Below are positions 2,760 to 28,558 of a stretch of DNA of 32,000 nucleotides, one piece after another. Made by a program: the position numbers and the translations under genes. Location of the stretch: assembly GCA_025340205.1 (NCBI GenBank), contig CP006868.1:690001-722000 (forward strand), read 5' to 3'. Source of the DNA: Ignicoccus pacificus DSM 13166. GTDB taxonomy: Archaea; Thermoproteota; Thermoprotei_A; Sulfolobales; Ignicoccaceae. A model generated the notes under the pieces. The model was not told where the DNA came from. It worked only from the letters and a program-made list of their open reading frames with translations, and ran no database searches. How positions within the stretch are numbered: position 1 is the stretch's first letter; the number at the start of each line of letters is the position of its first letter.

Positions 2760-3314
2760 ATGTCTTTAGTAGAGATAAGGTGGCATGGGAGGGGAGGACA
2801 AGGAGCGGTGACCGCGTCGGAGATTACTGCCATAGCTGCGATAGACCAAGGTAAGTACGCGCAAGCCTTCCCCTCCTTTGGTGTAGAGAGAAGAGGAGCT
2901 CCTGTGGAGGCGTTCACTCGAATCGATGATAAGCCGATATACATAAGGACCAAGGTGTACGAACCCGACATAATTGTAGTACTAGACCCAACTCTCTTAG
3001 GCCCTGAGATAGCGAGGGGCCTCAAGGAGAACGGCCTAGCTGTAGTCAACACTGACAAGAGCCCTGAGGAAGTTAAGAAGCTCCTAGGAAGGGATGACAT
3101 AAAGGTAGCCATCGTGGACGCTACTAAGATTGCCCTCGAGACCTTGAAGAGACCTATAGTAAACACCGCAATATTGGGTGCCTTCGTAAAGGCCAGTGGT
3201 CTGGTCGATCTTGACCACGTTTTGAAGGCTGTTAAATCCAAGGTGCCTCCAAGAACTGTGGAGGCGAACCTTGAAGCTGTTAGGAGAGCGTATGAGGAGG
3301 TGGTGATAGCATGA
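2760..3314 (+). CDS. porG: 2-oxoacid (pyruvate-type):ferredoxin oxidoreductase, gamma subunit
   Basis: N-terminus EIRWHGRGGQGAVTASE...FPSFGVERRGAP is the typical POR/VOR gamma signature. It is first in a gamma-delta-alpha-beta operon with 4-nt gene overlaps. Confidence 0.9.
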   Translation: MSLVEIRWHGRGGQGAVTASEITAIAAIDQGKYAQAFPSFGVERRGAPVEAFTRIDDKPIYIRTKVYEPDIIVVLDPTLLGPEIARGLKENGLAVVNTDKSPEEVKKLLGRDDIKVAIVDATKIALETLKRPIVNTAILGAFVKASGLVDLDHVLKAVKSKVPPRTVEANLEAVRRAYEEVVIA

Positions 3315-3610
3315 CCTTACCCGGTTGGAAGGAGCTACCCGAAGGAGCGGTCGTTAGGGAGCCAGGAAATACCGTTACCATAAGCACCGGCGAGTGGAGG
3401 GTCTTCAAGCCAGTAATAATCGACGAGAAGTGCACTAGGTGCAGGCTATGTTGGATCTACTGCCCCGATGGTACCATAATTGAGGTCGACGACCCCAACG
3501 CCCCTCTTGGCAAGAGGTACGAGGTGGACTACGAACACTGTAAGGGATGTGGTATTTGTTGGAAGGAGTGTCCGGTTAATGCTATAGAATGGGTACCTGA
3601 GGAGAGGTGA
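3311..3610 (+). CDS. porD: 2-oxoacid:ferredoxin oxidoreductase, delta subunit (2x[4Fe-4S] ferredoxin-like)
   Basis: Two Cys clusters, CTRCRLCWIYCP and CKGCGICWKECP. Size is 99 aa. ATGA-type overlap with the gamma gene. Confidence 0.9.
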   Translation: MTLPGWKELPEGAVVREPGNTVTISTGEWRVFKPVIIDEKCTRCRLCWIYCPDGTIIEVDDPNAPLGKRYEVDYEHCKGCGICWKECPVNAIEWVPEER

Positions 3611-4806
3611 TAACCATGGTGAAGATGGTTAGGAAGGCTCTAACCACCAACTACGCGGTAGCCCACGCCGCCAAGGACTCAGACGTCGACGTAATTGCCG
3701 CTTACCCGATTACGCCCTCTACTCCGGCTGCTGAGAAGCTAGCCGAGTACGTGGCAAACGGAGAGCTCGATGCAGAGTACGTCCACGTGGAGTCCGAGCA
3801 TTCCGCAGCCTCCGCCCTAGTAGGGGCCTCTGCAGTAGGGGCTAGGGCTTTCACGGTTACGGCCAGTCAAGGTCTAATCTACATGAGTGAGGTACTGTAC
3901 ATAGCATCCGGTCTGAGGCTCCCGATAGTACTGGGAGTTGCCTCCAGAGCTCTCTCCGCTCCCCTGAGCATCTGGGGCGACATGCACGATATAGCTCCAC
4001 TAAGGGATGCTGGTCTAATCATATACTTCGTGAGCTCCGCCCAAGAAGCCTATGACAGCGTAATCCAAGCGTTCAAGGTTGCTGAAGATCCCAGAGTTCA
4101 CCTACCGGCCATAGTCGATTACGATGGCTTCATAATGAGTCACGTAACCGAGCCCGTGGACGTAATCGACAGAGAGGACGTGCTGAAGTACATACCTAAG
4201 AAGGTCACTTGGAACACCCTAAATCCTAAGCAGCCGATAAGCATAGGTACCGTTGGAGATCCCGATTACTACTACGAGTTCAAGTACCAGCAGCAAGTTG
4301 CCATGGAGAACGCCGTAAAGGTCGCCGAGGAAGCTGATAAGGAGTTCGAGAAGATGTTCGGAAGAGGATATGGTCTGATAGAGGAGTACAGGATGGATGA
4401 CGCAGAAGTGGCTATGATAGCCTATGGCGCTCACGCTGGAACCGCTAGGGTAGCAGTAGACAAGGCTAGGGAGGAAGGAATCAAGGTAGGCCTGATCAAG
4501 CTAAGGCTGTGGAGGCCCTTCCCCACTGAGCACTTAATGAAAGCCTTAGAGAACGTAAGCGTAGTCGGCGTCTTGGACAGAGCTATGGCTCTGGGAGCTC
4601 CTAGGCAGGGCCCGGTAGTCAAGGACGTCATAAGCATGTATGCGAGCGATCCAAGCAAGGCACCGAAGGTAGCTAGTTACGCCCTAGCGATTGGCCAAAG
4701 AGACGTAAAGATAGAGGACCTCGTAGCTGTCGCCAAACAACTCGATGAGTTCGCCAAGGGTAAGGAGATACCCAACAAGACAATCTGTATAGGTCTGAGA
4801 GAGTGA
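3607..4806 (+). CDS. porA: 2-oxoacid:ferredoxin oxidoreductase, alpha subunit
   Basis: AAYPITPSTP...HVESEHSA...ASQGL motifs are typical of POR alpha. The start is ambiguous: GTG 3607, ATG 3616 or ATG 3625. Confidence 0.9.
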   Translation: MITMVKMVRKALTTNYAVAHAAKDSDVDVIAAYPITPSTPAAEKLAEYVANGELDAEYVHVESEHSAASALVGASAVGARAFTVTASQGLIYMSEVLYIASGLRLPIVLGVASRALSAPLSIWGDMHDIAPLRDAGLIIYFVSSAQEAYDSVIQAFKVAEDPRVHLPAIVDYDGFIMSHVTEPVDVIDREDVLKYIPKKVTWNTLNPKQPISIGTVGDPDYYYEFKYQQQVAMENAVKVAEEADKEFEKMFGRGYGLIEEYRMDDAEVAMIAYGAHAGTARVAVDKAREEGIKVGLIKLRLWRPFPTEHLMKALENVSVVGVLDRAMALGAPRQGPVVKDVISMYASDPSKAPKVASYALAIGQRDVKIEDLVAVAKQLDEFAKGKEIPNKTICIGLRE

Positions 4807-4842
4807 TTTTTGTTAAAGGAGTTATATTAAATAATCTAGGAG

Positions 4843-5832
4843 GTGATTGATATGGCGTTAAAGGAAGTAGGACCCATGGAGCCGATTAGGACCCACATGC
4901 AGATTCCAAGGGAGGAGCTCATAGCTCCCGGTCATTCAGCTTGCCAAGGTTGTGGTCACTTCATAATAGTGAGGCACTTACTGAAGGCAGCCGGACCTAA
5001 CACGATAGTGGTAAACCCCACAGGATGTCTAGAGGTAGTGACCACCGTCTTCCCCTACAGCAGCTGGAAGGTGCCGTGGATCCACGTCGCATTCGAGAAC
5101 GGCGGTTCGGTAGCCTCTGGAGTGGAGGCTGCCATCAAGAGCTTACAGAAGAAGGGTATCCTCCCTAAGGATGAGAGAATAAACGTGGTGGTCTTCGCCG
5201 GAGACGGAGGTACCGTTGACATAGGTTTCCAGAGCCTCTCGGGTATGTTCGAGAGAAGGCACAAGGTTGTCTACGTACTGCTCGACAACGAGGCCTACAT
5301 GAACACCGGTATACAGAGGTCCGGATCCACGCCCTACGGAGCTTGGACCACCACCACTCCGGTAGGGAAGAGATGGAAGGGAGAGTGGAGAGTTAGGAAG
5401 GACATGATGCAGATAGCGGTGGCTCACCATGTACCCTACGCCGCCACCATAAATCCAGCTTACCCAGTAGATATGTACAATAAGATGGTGAAGGCTCTGA
5501 AGGCCGAGGGACCCGCCTTCCTCCACGCCTACAGCCCGTGCCCGACCGGATGGAGGTTCGATCCCTCTCTAACCGTGGAAGTAGCGAGGATGGCCGTCCT
5601 AACCGGCTACTGGGTGCTGTACGAATATGATCATGGAAACTACAAGGTCACCGTACCTGTGCTGAAGAGGAAGCCGGTGAGGGAGTTCGTGAAGATGCAA
5701 GGCAGGTTCAGGCACATGACGGAAGAACAGATCAAGAAGCTACAAGAGATCATCGACGAGCAAGTAGAGCACATAAACAAGCTAGTAGGAAAGACTGTAA
5801 TTGGACCGGTAGTGGAAGAACAGAAGAAGTGA
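4843..5832 (+). CDS. porB: 2-oxoacid:ferredoxin oxidoreductase, beta subunit (TPP-binding)
   Basis: CxGCG at the N-terminus and the TPP motif GDGGTVDIGFQSL...LDNEAYMNTGIQ. The likely true start is ATG 4852, preceded by GGAGGTGA at 4839-4846. Confidence 0.9.
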   Translation: MIDMALKEVGPMEPIRTHMQIPREELIAPGHSACQGCGHFIIVRHLLKAAGPNTIVVNPTGCLEVVTTVFPYSSWKVPWIHVAFENGGSVASGVEAAIKSLQKKGILPKDERINVVVFAGDGGTVDIGFQSLSGMFERRHKVVYVLLDNEAYMNTGIQRSGSTPYGAWTTTTPVGKRWKGEWRVRKDMMQIAVAHHVPYAATINPAYPVDMYNKMVKALKAEGPAFLHAYSPCPTGWRFDPSLTVEVARMAVLTGYWVLYEYDHGNYKVTVPVLKRKPVREFVKMQGRFRHMTEEQIKKLQEIIDEQVEHINKLVGKTVIGPVVEEQKK

Positions 5833-18258: not shown

Positions 18259-18750
18259 TTGAGCAAGGTCATCGCACCCATACCGACACACTTCAAGGTC
18301 GGAGAGAGGTTCGTCGCCACGGGTCTCTTACCTACTTGTGAGACATGTTGGCTGAAGGAGAAGTGCGGTCAACTGAAGAAGGGGTGGATTTACGAGGTTA
18401 AGGCAATCATAGGGAGGATTGAACATCCTTGCAAGCTTCACGGAAAGGTAGTGGTAGCGGAGCTCGAGGAACTGGGCGTCTCCTTGGTAGTACCCTCGAA
18501 ACTCGCCATAGAGGGGGCGACCGTCGAGTATACTCCAATAGCCTGTGACAACAAGAATTGTCCTCTCTGGGGAGATTGTACCGGCAGAAAGCACAGACTC
18601 GGAAGGAGGGTGAGGGTCAAGATAGTGAGCGTTATAGAGAAAGTTGATTGCCCCAAGGGAGAGTCTTTATACAAGGTGATAGGCATTCCGGAGAGGGTCG
18701 AGAGAAGACCGAGGAAGGGCCATAGAAGAAACAAGAGGAAGAATTTATAA
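18259..18750 (+). CDS. UPF0179-family Cys-rich archaeal protein
   Basis: The pattern CxxC...C...G.Y.V....EHPCKLHGKV.V.E...EG.TV.Y.P..C.N..CP....C matches my recollection of UPF0179. TTG is the only in-frame start and GAGGAG lies upstream. Confidence 0.6.
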   Translation: MSKVIAPIPTHFKVGERFVATGLLPTCETCWLKEKCGQLKKGWIYEVKAIIGRIEHPCKLHGKVVVAELEELGVSLVVPSKLAIEGATVEYTPIACDNKNCPLWGDCTGRKHRLGRRVRVKIVSVIEKVDCPKGESLYKVIGIPERVERRPRKGHRRNKRKNL

Positions 18751-18751
18751 A
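18744..18751 (+). promoter_or_regulatory. TATA box (TTTATAAA) for the tRNA-Arg transcription unit
   Basis: It lies 31-38 nt upstream of the mature tRNA 5' end and overlaps the UPF0179 stop codon. Confidence 0.4.
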
Positions 18752-18781: not shown

Positions 18782-18888
18782 GGGCCCGTAGCTCAGCTAG
18801 GACAGAGCGCCGGCCTCCTAACCACATGCGGGGTTCCGTAAGGGAAGAAAGCCGGTGGTCCGGGGTTCAAATCCCCGCGGGCCCGCCA
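18782..18888 (+). tRNA. tRNA-Arg(CCU) with a canonical roughly 29-nt intron after position 37; CCA encoded
   Basis: Acceptor GGGCCCG/CGGGCCC. D arm GCUC..GAGC. Anticodon stem CCGGC/GCCGG with loop CU-CCU-A, interrupted at about 18821-18849. T arm CGGGG-UUCAAAU-CCCCG. Discriminator G plus CCA. Confidence 0.9.
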
Positions 18889-18921
18889 CAGCAGGGCTTC
18901 GGGCTCCAGACGGGGAGGGCG

Positions 18922-18979
18922 AGCCGGGCAGGCGGGGAGAACCCCCGTGACCGGGGTTCGAATCCCCGCCCGGCTACCA
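18922..18979 (+). other. tRNA-like element: 7-bp acceptor stem (A1:U72), T-arm, discriminator A and CCA, but no D arm or anticodon loop
   Basis: AGCCGGG (18922-28) is the exact complement of CCCGGCU (18969-75). T arm CGGGG-UUCGAAU-CCCCG (18952-68). ACCA at 18976-79. Only 23 nt (18929-51) lie between the acceptor 5' strand and the T arm. Part of that folds as CGGGG-AGAAC-CCCCG. Confidence 0.4.
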
Positions 18980-19019
18980 CTTACCTAAAACCTCTCACAC
19001 CTCGTACCTCCCGGTAGCC

Positions 19020-20204
19020 ATGAACCTCAAAGAAATCGAGAAAGAGCTAGGATTTCCCATCGAGATCGTGGAAGAAGGAAGGACTAAGGTAATCGTCCCG
19101 AGAATGAGCGAATACCTCAGACCCGATGGAGTGTATGAGCCCAGCCACGCTCCAGTCTTCTACAATCCCAGAGCCAAGTTCAACAGGGACGTGGCTGTAG
19201 TCATAGGGAAAGCGCTCAGAGAGGAGCTCGGGAGGCTAGACGTCCTCGAACCCCTAGCGGGGAGCGGAGTGAGAAGCGTAAGGTATGCTAGGGAGTGCGA
19301 TGCGACGAAGGTATTAGCAGTTGACGTAGATCCCTTAGCAGTAAAACTGATAGAGTTTAATGCATTGATAAATAATGTTTATGATAAGATTAAGGTTTTA
19401 AACAACGACGCCAACGCTGTCTTGCATTCAAGAGAGCTTAGAGGAGGCTATTTCGATCTAGTTGATGTTGACCCCTTCGGGTCACCCATGCCCTTTGCGG
19501 ATGGAGCGATAAGAGCGACTAGGAGAAGGGGGATCGTGGCATTTACCGCCACTGACACCGCTCCTTTAACGGGAGCGAAACCTCAATCGGCCCTACGAAA
19601 GTATTGGAGTGCTGTAAAGAGGACTCCTTTCTCCAAGGAGCTCGCGATAAGGGTACTAATAGGAGCTGTAGTAAGGGTCGCTTCAGTAAGGGAAGTGAGC
19701 TTGAGGCCAGAAATAGCTTTCTTCAAGGACTATTATGTTAGAGTCGAGTTGAGGCTGGACAGAGGGGCGGGGAGAACTGATCAAACTTTGGCTCAATTGG
19801 GTTACCTTGCATATGACGAGAGAAATTACGACGTTAGGGTCCTAGAAGGTTTTCCTCTACCAAAAGAGGTTCCCAAAGGCTACACCGTATTAGGCCCCCT
19901 GTGGCTCGGAAACCTCACTGGACCCCTAAGCGAGAGGGCATTGAAGTATGAGGAGTTCCCGAAGGTCGTTGAATTCATAAAGAGGATTAGGATGGAGGAC
20001 GAAATTGGAGTTCCTTACTCCTACAAGATAGAGAAGGTGGCTAGCCTATTACACACTCACATGCCCAGCCCCAGACTCGTAGTGGAGAAGCTCAGAGAGA
20101 TAGGGTATAAAGCAGTACTAGCCCACTACGATCACACCGCCGTAAAGACCAACGCTCCTAGAGAAGATGTGTTTAAGGTCGTGAAGGAGCTCTCTCCACT
20201 TTGA
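19020..20204 (+). CDS. trm1: tRNA (guanine26-N2)-dimethyltransferase
   Basis: FYNPRAKFNRD, LEPLAGSGVRSVRYA and DVDPFGSP motifs. Size is 394 aa. Confidence 0.9.
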   Translation: MNLKEIEKELGFPIEIVEEGRTKVIVPRMSEYLRPDGVYEPSHAPVFYNPRAKFNRDVAVVIGKALREELGRLDVLEPLAGSGVRSVRYARECDATKVLAVDVDPLAVKLIEFNALINNVYDKIKVLNNDANAVLHSRELRGGYFDLVDVDPFGSPMPFADGAIRATRRRGIVAFTATDTAPLTGAKPQSALRKYWSAVKRTPFSKELAIRVLIGAVVRVASVREVSLRPEIAFFKDYYVRVELRLDRGAGRTDQTLAQLGYLAYDERNYDVRVLEGFPLPKEVPKGYTVLGPLWLGNLTGPLSERALKYEEFPKVVEFIKRIRMEDEIGVPYSYKIEKVASLLHTHMPSPRLVVEKLREIGYKAVLAHYDHTAVKTNAPREDVFKVVKELSPL

Positions 20205-28214: not shown

Positions 28215-28315
28215 GGGCCCGTAGCTCAGCTTGGTAGAGCGGCGGGCTCTTAACCCGTAGAGGCGGGGCTTGACCGTCGCGGAAGTCCCGGGTTCAAATC
28301 CCGGCGGGCCCGCCA
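28215..28315 (+). tRNA. tRNA-Lys(CUU) with a non-canonical roughly 24-nt intron in the variable region (near position 45/46); CCA encoded
   Basis: Acceptor GGGCCCG/CGGGCCC. D arm GCUC..GAGC. An intact anticodon arm GCGGG-CU-CUU-AA-CCCGU. An extra approximately 28261-28284 sits between AG and GUC of the variable loop. T arm CCGGG-UUCAAAU-CCCGG. G plus CCA. Confidence 0.85.
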
Positions 28316-28558
28316 CGACCCAATGGGCTCCTACACCTCCCTCCTCCATTACACTTCTCAACTCAGTACATTCCAAAACACCCAGCGTAATCACCAAACC
28401 GCGCCTAAGCCTCACTTCAGCAAACCATCACTCGAAAAGCCTTCTAAGTAAGGAGCACAAACATAAGTCAAAGAACATTAGTCTTCACAAGAGAAGCAAG
28501 GCTTGTAGATTTTCATCTATAAATATATAGAAAGTGCAAAACTCGTGAGACTTTACGT

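Follow-up and report, generated by a model that had tools for sequence, protein, structure and literature searches.

The stretch of DNA described here, 32,000 nucleotides (nt) of the archaeon Ignicoccus pacificus DSM 13166 (contig CP006868.1, positions 690,001 to 722,000; hereafter the window, with a G+C content of 47.7%), carries a short tRNA-like element directly behind a gene for tRNA-Arg(CCU). Ignicoccus is the genus that hosts Nanoarchaeum. The tRNA-Arg gene runs from 18782 to 18885, its encoded CCA occupies 18886-18888, and a 33-nt spacer (18889-18921) separates it from AGCCGGG (18922-18928), the exact complement of CCCGGCT at 18969-18975. From AGCCGGG to the T arm there are 23 nt (18929-18951), which hold a hairpin (CGGGG/AGAAC/CCCCG). 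The T arm itself (CGGGG 18952-18956, TTCGAAT 18957-18963, CCCCG 18964-18968) leads into CCCGGCT, and the element ends with A at 18976 and CCA at 18977-18979. The coordinates that an earlier note on this DNA had given for the element are all borne out on re-reading, as is its statement that a D arm and an anticodon loop are absent, only the 23-nt connector being present. The label of an armless tRNA has to be replaced: positions 18942-18979 are nt 38-73 plus CCA of crenarchaeal tRNA-Gln(CUG/UUG), and the element is a conserved orphan 3' half of that tRNA. ARAGORN reports no gene in the window, missing both intron-bearing tRNAs (Arg and Lys) as well, and Rfam at standard thresholds reports those two intron-bearing tRNAs only.

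The identity of the 3' half comes from an exact search with GGTTCGAATCCCCGCCCGGCTA, the 22-mer 18955-18976, in one-genome-per-species contigs. At least 119 loci match, all of them in Desulfurococcales, Acidilobaceae, Pyrodictiaceae, Ignisphaera, Sulfolobales, and unclassified Thermoproteota/Thermoprotei metagenome-assembled genomes (MAGs). At 101 of these listed loci a complete tRNA-Gln(CUG/UUG) ends with the match; its layout is AGCCGGGTCGTCTAGCGGCCAAGGATGCGGGGCT(C/T)TGG / CCCCCGTGACCGGGGTTCGAATCCCCGCCCGGCTA, and the 13 nt before the 22-mer are near-invariant among the 101. A stricter reading of the anticodon across the loci listed (at least 119) gives CTG in 53, TTG in 45, and no call in 21. 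Introns are absent from 40 of the 101 listed full genes; the remainder are interrupted exactly at 37/38, and many of the introns end in ...GGGGAGAA. The window piece becomes identical to intact tRNA-Gln exactly at nt 38, the canonical intron site, and consists of C38, the anticodon-stem 3' strand CCCCG, the variable loop UGAC, the T arm, CCCGGCU, and the discriminator A. Apart from the 7-mer AGCCGGG, nothing upstream of nt 38 resembles a tRNA; the nine nt that precede it, CGGGGAGAA, are also those with which tRNA-Gln introns of relatives end (e.g., loci L002 and L028). Because the 3' part is identical to tRNA-Gln from nt 38 on, the combination of A1:U72 and A73, previously taken as initiator-like, is the tRNA-Gln signature of the clade.

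Split tRNA-Gln genes with cognate trailer/leader pairing are widespread in Desulfurococcales and Sulfolobales MAGs. In 18 of the listed loci, which number at least 119, no 5' half lies within 400 nt upstream (two of them, L044 and L046, are truncated by a contig end). At eight loci, five of those 18 and three more with halves 148-226 nt apart, a 5' half is found 148-1993 nt upstream on the same strand, and the tRNA-Gln is split at 37/38 (L009, L011, L027, L052, L091, L100, L101, and L102). At these eight, the 5'-half trailer is complementary to the 3'-half leader, which has an A/T-rich, TATA-like box in front of it; most of the trailers have a T-run behind them. Cognate trailer/leader duplexes reach -35 to -56 kcal/mol in seven of the eight, compared with -11 to -32 kcal/mol for non-cognate ones. 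A further group carries the 3' half only (L003/L032, L020, L024, L025, L031, L051, L106, and L119). GGRG-AR, directly followed by C38, terminates the leader in most of the independent 3'-half loci read, and the leader of the window element has the composition and position of those of proven split tRNA-Gln 3' halves. Several MAGs hold one split and one intact isoacceptor (e.g., L009/L116, L011/L013, and L100/L088); by analogy, the lineage of the window may likewise combine the two. The literature search returned no report of a split tRNA-Gln in Ignicoccus or Desulfurococcales.

The split loci have peculiarities of their own. Two metabolic genes lie between the halves of L091, and the MAG WYEQ01 has two separate 3' halves. 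Inserts of 670-750 nt between split tRNA-Gln(UUG) halves (L009, ~4700-5290; L102, ~3150-3770; L100, ~2270-2830) encode antisense double-motif LAGLIDADG homing endonucleases (Pfam PF14528 and PF05204, I-DmoI-like), intact in L009 and L102 and frameshifted in L100. This arrangement suggests the insertion of a mobile endonuclease gene into the 37/38 intron as the event that split the genes at these three loci; the split-tRNA papers found by the literature search do not mention LAGLIDADG. In L115 (~970-1045), a decayed 5' part (AGCCGACGG...CCCGACTCTGG) precedes an intact intron end and exon 2. L090 (~5520-5640, minus strand) keeps GCGGGGCTCTGG (nt 26-37) and exon 2 without nt 1-25, a layout that suggests an additional split or intron near 25/26.

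The break in the window element lies at the canonical 37/38 intron site, and the GGAG-AA that precedes it reads as the 3' strand of a bulge-helix-bulge splice motif. The register is taken from the split locus L009, where nt 32-35 pair with leader positions -6 to -3 (GGAG), the 3' bulge is formed by leader -2 and -1 plus C38, the 5' bulge by G36, G37, and trailer +1, and the outer helix starts from trailer +2 and leader -7. The window carries the same type of 3' strand (GGAG 18936-18939, AA 18940-18941). In this register GGAG would pair with C32-U33-Y34-U35, and AA together with C38 would hold the 3' splice site 18941/18942. Since G pairs with either C or U at position 34, the GGAG strand fits both CUG and UUG 5' halves. 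Of the canonical motif (a 4-bp helix with 3-nt bulges), the locus supplies the 3' strand and the 5' strand belongs to the partner. When a model 5' half and the locus were cofolded without constraints, no cloverleaf emerged, and the result was not used.

Conservation was read from a four-way alignment of the window, Ignicoccus islandicus (L124), the MAG GCA_054016855.1 (L121), and a vent-metagenome contig (L130). Each of the three relatives has tRNA-Arg(CCU), a G-rich leader, the Gln 3' half, and trm1. L124 and L130 preserve the gene order FtsX-ABC-x-UPF0179-[tRNA-Arg(CCU) + element]-trm1, and L121 preserves part of it. The Gln piece with its CCA is invariant in 38/38 columns, the tRNA-Arg exons in 77/78, and GGRGAA in 5/6, where the change from A to G retains a U:G pair. 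The AGCCGGG block is invariant in 4 of 7 columns and the remaining leader in 6 of 26 (whole leader 10/33; by part 4/19, 4/7, and 2/7), and the flanks are invariant in about 20% of columns (5' 10/42, 3' 6/41). The 38 invariant columns include the anticodon-stem strand and the variable loop; the pattern of selection is that of a working tRNA part, and the Gln half is under purifying selection across these species. The perfect conservation of nt 38-76, together with the GGRG-AA strand at the predicted splice site, argues for function. Table 1 gives the positions of the features.

Table 1. Features of the tRNA-Arg(CCU)/tRNA-Gln 3'-half locus in window coordinates.
Feature	Position	Strand	Remarks
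TATA-like box TTTATAAA	18744..18751	+	~30 nt upstream of tRNA-Arg; read from the sequence
tRNA-Arg(CCU) with encoded CCA	18782..18888	+	Rfam RF00005, 56.5 bits
Intron of tRNA-Arg(CCU), 29 nt, at 37/38	18821-18849	+	
GGGCTCC motif in the tRNA-Arg 3' trailer	18901..18907	+	7/7 columns invariant
G-rich leader	18908..18935	+	includes the pseudo-acceptor AGCCGGG 18922-18928
Putative 3' strand of bulge-helix-bulge	18936..18941	+	register from split and intron-bearing tRNA-Gln genes
tRNA-Gln nt 38-73	18942..18976	+	at least 119 genome loci match the 22-mer 18955-18976 exactly
Genome-encoded CCA	18977..18979	+	CCA is also encoded in the majority of tRNA-Gln genes in the order
Spacer with CTTACCTAAAA, probably the trm1 BRE/TATA (putative promoter)	18980..19019	+	trm1 ATG at 19020

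With moderate confidence, the locus is read as the promoter-less 3'-half gene of a trans-spliced tRNA-Gln that is co-transcribed with tRNA-Arg. A split or trans-spliced tRNA fragment joined through a bulge-helix-bulge had been among the options of the earlier note and is the best supported of them; what has changed is the missing part, which is the entire 5' half (nt 1-37) and not a cassette of D and anticodon arms. No A/T-rich box lies between tRNA-Arg and 18942 (18889-18941). The nearest TATA-like sequence, at 18744-18751, belongs to an A/T-rich block that aligns in all four genomes. Because this sole TATA-like box precedes tRNA-Arg, the Gln piece is most likely co-transcribed with it. In the proposed pathway, the half would be transcribed from the tRNA-Arg(CCU) promoter as part of a dicistronic precursor, and 3' processing of tRNA-Arg would free the leader and the half. 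The leader (18908-18935) would then anneal to the C-rich trailer of a separate 5' half (nt 1-37, anticodon CUG and/or UUG), with predicted trailers of the form N-CCGCCTGCCCGGCT... in the window genome and N-CCACCTTCCCGGCTC... in I. islandicus. The acceptor and anticodon stems would form in trans, and pairing of C32-U35 with GGAG 18936-18939 would complete a helix-bulge-helix-bulge-helix arrangement, in which the splicing endonuclease would cut at 18941/18942 and after G37 and an RtcB-type ligase would join the exons. One 3' half could serve both isoacceptors. Such a gene may have arisen when an intact intron-bearing gene lost the segment from nt 8 to the middle of the intron, L115 being a comparable locus.

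Several observations weigh against this interpretation. Neither a 5' half nor a complementary trailer is present in the 32-kb window, nor in ~190 kb of Ignicoccus-lineage loci (L120-L132 and L137). A pattern combining a 5' half with the predicted trailer had three matches in JGI metagenomes, all of them chance and non-tRNA; in viral contigs it had four identical matches, also non-tRNA. Because the searches covered loci rather than whole element-bearing genomes, intact genes for both isoacceptors are possible. A sister lineage, in which trm1 has another context (L123 and L131), has an intact, intron-less tRNA-Gln(UUG) (L075, L138, and L139). Organization is a further difficulty: no promoter of its own stands 20-25 nt upstream of the splice site, whereas every other 3'-only locus has its own TATA box and all described split halves have promoters of their own. 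An own promoter is a usual trait of organization rather than of mechanism. Finally, the leader can still pair with CCCGGCU in all four genomes, by way of bulges or G:U pairs; a cis structure would also explain this retained pairing, which is weak evidence.

The places at which relatives carry tRNA-Gln bear on the same question. The order GlyRS-agmatinase-tRNA-Gln-TFB-SUI1 is conserved in many Desulfurococcales (24 of loci L001-L119); in the element-bearing genome GCA_054016855.1, the agmatinase-TFB junction is 6 nt long (L132 2036-2042) and contains no tRNA. The tRNA-Gln(UUG) of the sister lineage sits between a radical-SAM gene and GYD-S17, and in I. islandicus no tRNA lies upstream of S17 at the corresponding locus. 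By this comparison of gene neighborhoods, the two tRNA-Gln sites that are empty in element-bearing genomes are indirect evidence in favor of a split gene.

The block AGCCGGG, which gives the element its acceptor-like stem, behaves differently from the 3' half. The leader reads AGCCGGG-C-AGGCGGGGAGAA in the window and AGCCGGG-A-AGGTGGGGGGAA in I. islandicus. In L121 it reads AGCCCGGG-C-GATGGGGGGAA, the 5' block carrying an insertion, and in L130 it reads GACCGGGTCTGGCGAGCGGGGAGAA, with the block appearing as GACCGGG / GGTCTGG with two changes. In the 101 intact genes, the true 5' strand fits an 18-nt 5'-end pattern with at most two mismatches and is AGCCGGG wherever read. Since L121 and L130 differ in this leader block and yet share an unchanged 3' half, AGCCGGG cannot form a strand in a mature tRNA; either it is left over from the 5' acceptor strand that an ancestral intact gene possessed, or it occurs in the leader by chance. 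The exact 7/7 complementarity had been held to argue against random decay. That argument is weak, since the 7-mer is unconserved and AGCCGGG arises in 3.9% of composition-matched shuffles of the 53-nt leader (p ~0.04). Likewise, the 8-mer AGGCGGGG, reported as shared with the tRNA-Lys intron, is at chance level (2 occurrences against 0.81 expected; 20% of shuffles reach 2).

A rather unlikely variant of the trans-spliced half makes the pseudo-acceptor functional, the AGCCGGG:CCCGGCU minihelix in cis producing a self-chaperoned split-tRNA half. The minihelix would recruit RNase P (cutting at 18921/18922 and leaving a 20-nt leader), tRNase Z, and the CCA-adding enzyme. In this form the half would be cut free, trimmed, and shielded until the true 5' half displaced the decoy strand, and trans-splicing would follow. 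Leaders of split halves are usually ~20 nt long (PMC3218864). Such a half, if real, would represent a maturation route described for no split tRNA.

An autonomous tRNA-like minihelix, the 58-nt RNA 18922-18979 made up of a T arm with CCA, a short hairpin, and a pseudo-acceptor stem, cut out by RNase P and tRNase Z, and acting, for example, as a decoy or substrate of tRNA enzymes or as a tRNA-mimic signal by trm1, is an alternative of comparably low probability. Taken alone, the 58 nt fold at -37 kcal/mol (z = -3.9), the leader block can pair with CCCGGCU in all four genomes (G:U from the changes A to G and C to U, plus single bulges), and the element adjoins trm1 in each. With the full leader, however, the fold is no better than shuffles in the four genomes (z only -0.3 to -1.5), and RNAalifold finds 0 of 25 pairs to be compensatory in the four-genome alignment, so that a conserved, co-varying acceptor stem is not observed; only 4 of the 7 pseudo-acceptor columns are invariant. 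A minihelix would have no need of nt 38-48, all of which are invariant and equal to those of real tRNA-Gln, and it leaves the retained GGRG-AA splice strand unexplained. Relatives with trm1 elsewhere have no element upstream of that gene. Under relaxed settings, Rfam gives the element sub-threshold matches only: a weak one to mascRNA-menRNA, which at 24.7 bits is far under the cut-off of 42.5 bits, and one to tRNA-Sec (17.5 bits).

It is also unlikely that the element is a non-functional remnant of a tRNA-Gln downstream of tRNA-Arg, kept by gene conversion or as a processing or termination spacer. The layout of nt 1-7, intron 3' end, and exon 2 is what a single internal deletion would produce; L115 is comparable, the sister lineage has an intact tRNA-Gln(UUG), and no partner was found in the loci searched. 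Neutral decay and patchy presence are not what is seen, however: the half has no substitution in four lineages, beside a leader and flanks near saturation, and the gene order has persisted since the lineage parted from I. islandicus. Conversion would need a 41-nt tract with homology on one side only. Conservation has a sharp boundary at the splice site; that boundary and the conserved GGRGAA are more in keeping with selection on splicing than with conversion.

Two further proposals fare much worse. Very improbably, both local acceptor strands would mature and a cassette of D arm and anticodon arm would be spliced in from elsewhere. AGCCGGG at 18922-18928 does equal nt 1-7 of tRNA-Gln, and a tri-split tRNA exists in Caldivirga according to the citation of Fujishima 2009 in PMC8450103; nonetheless, the A1:U72 acceptor stem would be disrupted by AGCCCGGG (L121) and by GACCGGG (L130), two splice-motif halves do not fit into the 13-nt connector, and among the loci listed (at least 119) none has an intron or split at 7/8. 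Least credible of all is an attachment (att) site remnant of a virus or plasmid integrating at tRNA-Gln, an option of the earlier note that finds no support: archaeal integrative elements generally duplicate tRNA 3' parts, but no integrase or mobile gene is near, the housekeeping synteny is kept in four genomes, the 3'-half 22-mer has 0 matches in 2.9 million viral contigs, and the boundary of the duplication is the splice site, with splice-motif sequence.

The neighborhood of the locus consists of housekeeping genes (FtsX/ABC, UPF0179, Trm1, a metallophosphoesterase, YhbY, and FeoB). Over the 13-19 kb to each side, no integrase, LAGLIDADG gene, 5' half, or complement of the leader is present. 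The Trm1 protein (19020-20204; Pfam PF02005, E = 1e-81) is most similar to proteins of uncultured archaea (70-74% identity); among named organisms, I. islandicus matches best (55%), and the Trm1 proteins of the three element-bearing relatives are 55-70% identical to it. Directly after the Gln CCA, CACTTACCTA(T)AAAA is common to the window (18980-18995) and L130 (9959-9972). At ~30 nt before the trm1 start, it is probably the TFB-recognition element (BRE) and TATA box of trm1, and the tRNA transcript would run into this putative promoter.

The tRNA-Arg trailer contains a conserved motif of its own. In each of the four genomes, tRNA-Arg(CCU) and tRNA-Lys(CUU) are both followed by an invariant GGGCTCC(T), 9-16 nt past their encoded CCA (window 18901-18907 and 28325-28331; L121 8364 and 17909; L124 9873 and 18801; L130 9883 and 19374). 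The spacer between CCA and the motif is unconserved, and the motif resembles the 5' strand of the anticodon stem/loop of these tRNAs and is able to pair with the palindromic acceptor sequence GGGCCC. Because the CCA of tRNA-Lys(CUU) is followed by the same motif, GGGCTCC is not part of the Gln leader. The idea that GGGCUCC imitates nt 29-35 in cis and makes a bulge-helix-loop together with the splice site was discarded for the same reason, as the motif also follows a tRNA-Lys that has no half behind it. A cis-spliced product in which GGGCUCCNN is joined to C38 was discarded as well, since no conserved acceptor pairing results. The tRNA-Lys(CUU) gene itself (28215-28312) seems to be interrupted by its intron at a non-canonical site, behind the anticodon stem, and its 5' half differs very little from the one in tRNA-Arg(CCU).

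Whether tRNA originated from two half-genes is debated, and split tRNAs stand at the center of that question; the literature searched reports them from Nanoarchaeum, Caldivirga, and four Desulfurococcales only. To these the Ignicoccus lineage, which has a cultured, fully sequenced member (I. islandicus), would contribute a further case with its conserved tRNA-Gln 3' half. If the 5' acceptor strand in the leader is a vestige, the split would be derived by deletion from an intact intron-bearing gene and would not be ancestral. Because ARAGORN and the Rfam tRNA model miss the element, such genomes may appear to be without a tRNA-Gln.

Among known systems, mascRNA, a vertebrate RNA (RF01684), shares with the element an acceptor-like stem and T arm, a length of ~55-60 nt, and the potential to be a substrate of RNase P, tRNase Z, and the CCA-adding enzyme; it differs in that the match scores 24.7 against 42.5 bits, the 3' 38 nt of the element are a true tRNA-Gln half, and its 5' strand is unconserved. 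The tri-split tRNA-Gly of Caldivirga maquilingensis (Fujishima 2009) is a multi-transcript tRNA with bulge-helix-bulge junctions and shared end pieces. Each of its pieces is a gene of its own, with leaders and trailers at the 25/26 and 37/38 junctions; at the window locus, by contrast, what looks like a 5' piece is continuous with the 3' half and differs from one genome to another.

The closest parallels are split tRNAs of the same order and those of Nanoarchaeum equitans. Like the recently split tRNA-Asp and tRNA-Lys of Desulfurococcales (PMC3218864), the element belongs to the same order, has its break at an intron position, and has a leader similar to theirs of ~20-25 nt; the Staphylothermus 3' fragment described in the same paper was recognized, as here, by an exact tRNA match from the split point to the 3' end with nothing upstream. 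The halves of those tRNAs lie 0.1-4.8 kb apart and have strong promoters, whereas here no 5' half lies within 13-19 kb, another isoacceptor is involved, and the leader copies the 5' acceptor strand. With the MAG split loci L009, L011, L027, L052, L091, L100, and L102, the element shares an identical 3' half, the GGRG-AR/C junction, and a G-rich leader; those loci have TATA boxes and cognate trailers upstream, and three have antisense LAGLIDADG genes, none of which is present at the window locus.

In Nanoarchaeum equitans, tRNA-Glu(UUC/CUC) share one 3' half, as given in the table of PMC3218864 and the RNA-seq account of PMC3491384 (after Randau 2005). The halves there each have their own promoter and a proven partner, and tRNA-Gln is split at 32/33 instead of 37/38; the Ignicoccus half is promoter-less, stands behind a complete tRNA, and has no partner in the loci searched. 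The two systems nevertheless agree in a 3' half that begins at nt 38, a G/C-rich leader, and a junction at 37/38, for which a bulge-helix-bulge is predicted in the Ignicoccus case; and, as with tRNA-Glu of N. equitans, two anticodons distinguished by their nt 34 could make use of a single 3' half. The element is most likely a further member of the split-tRNA class.

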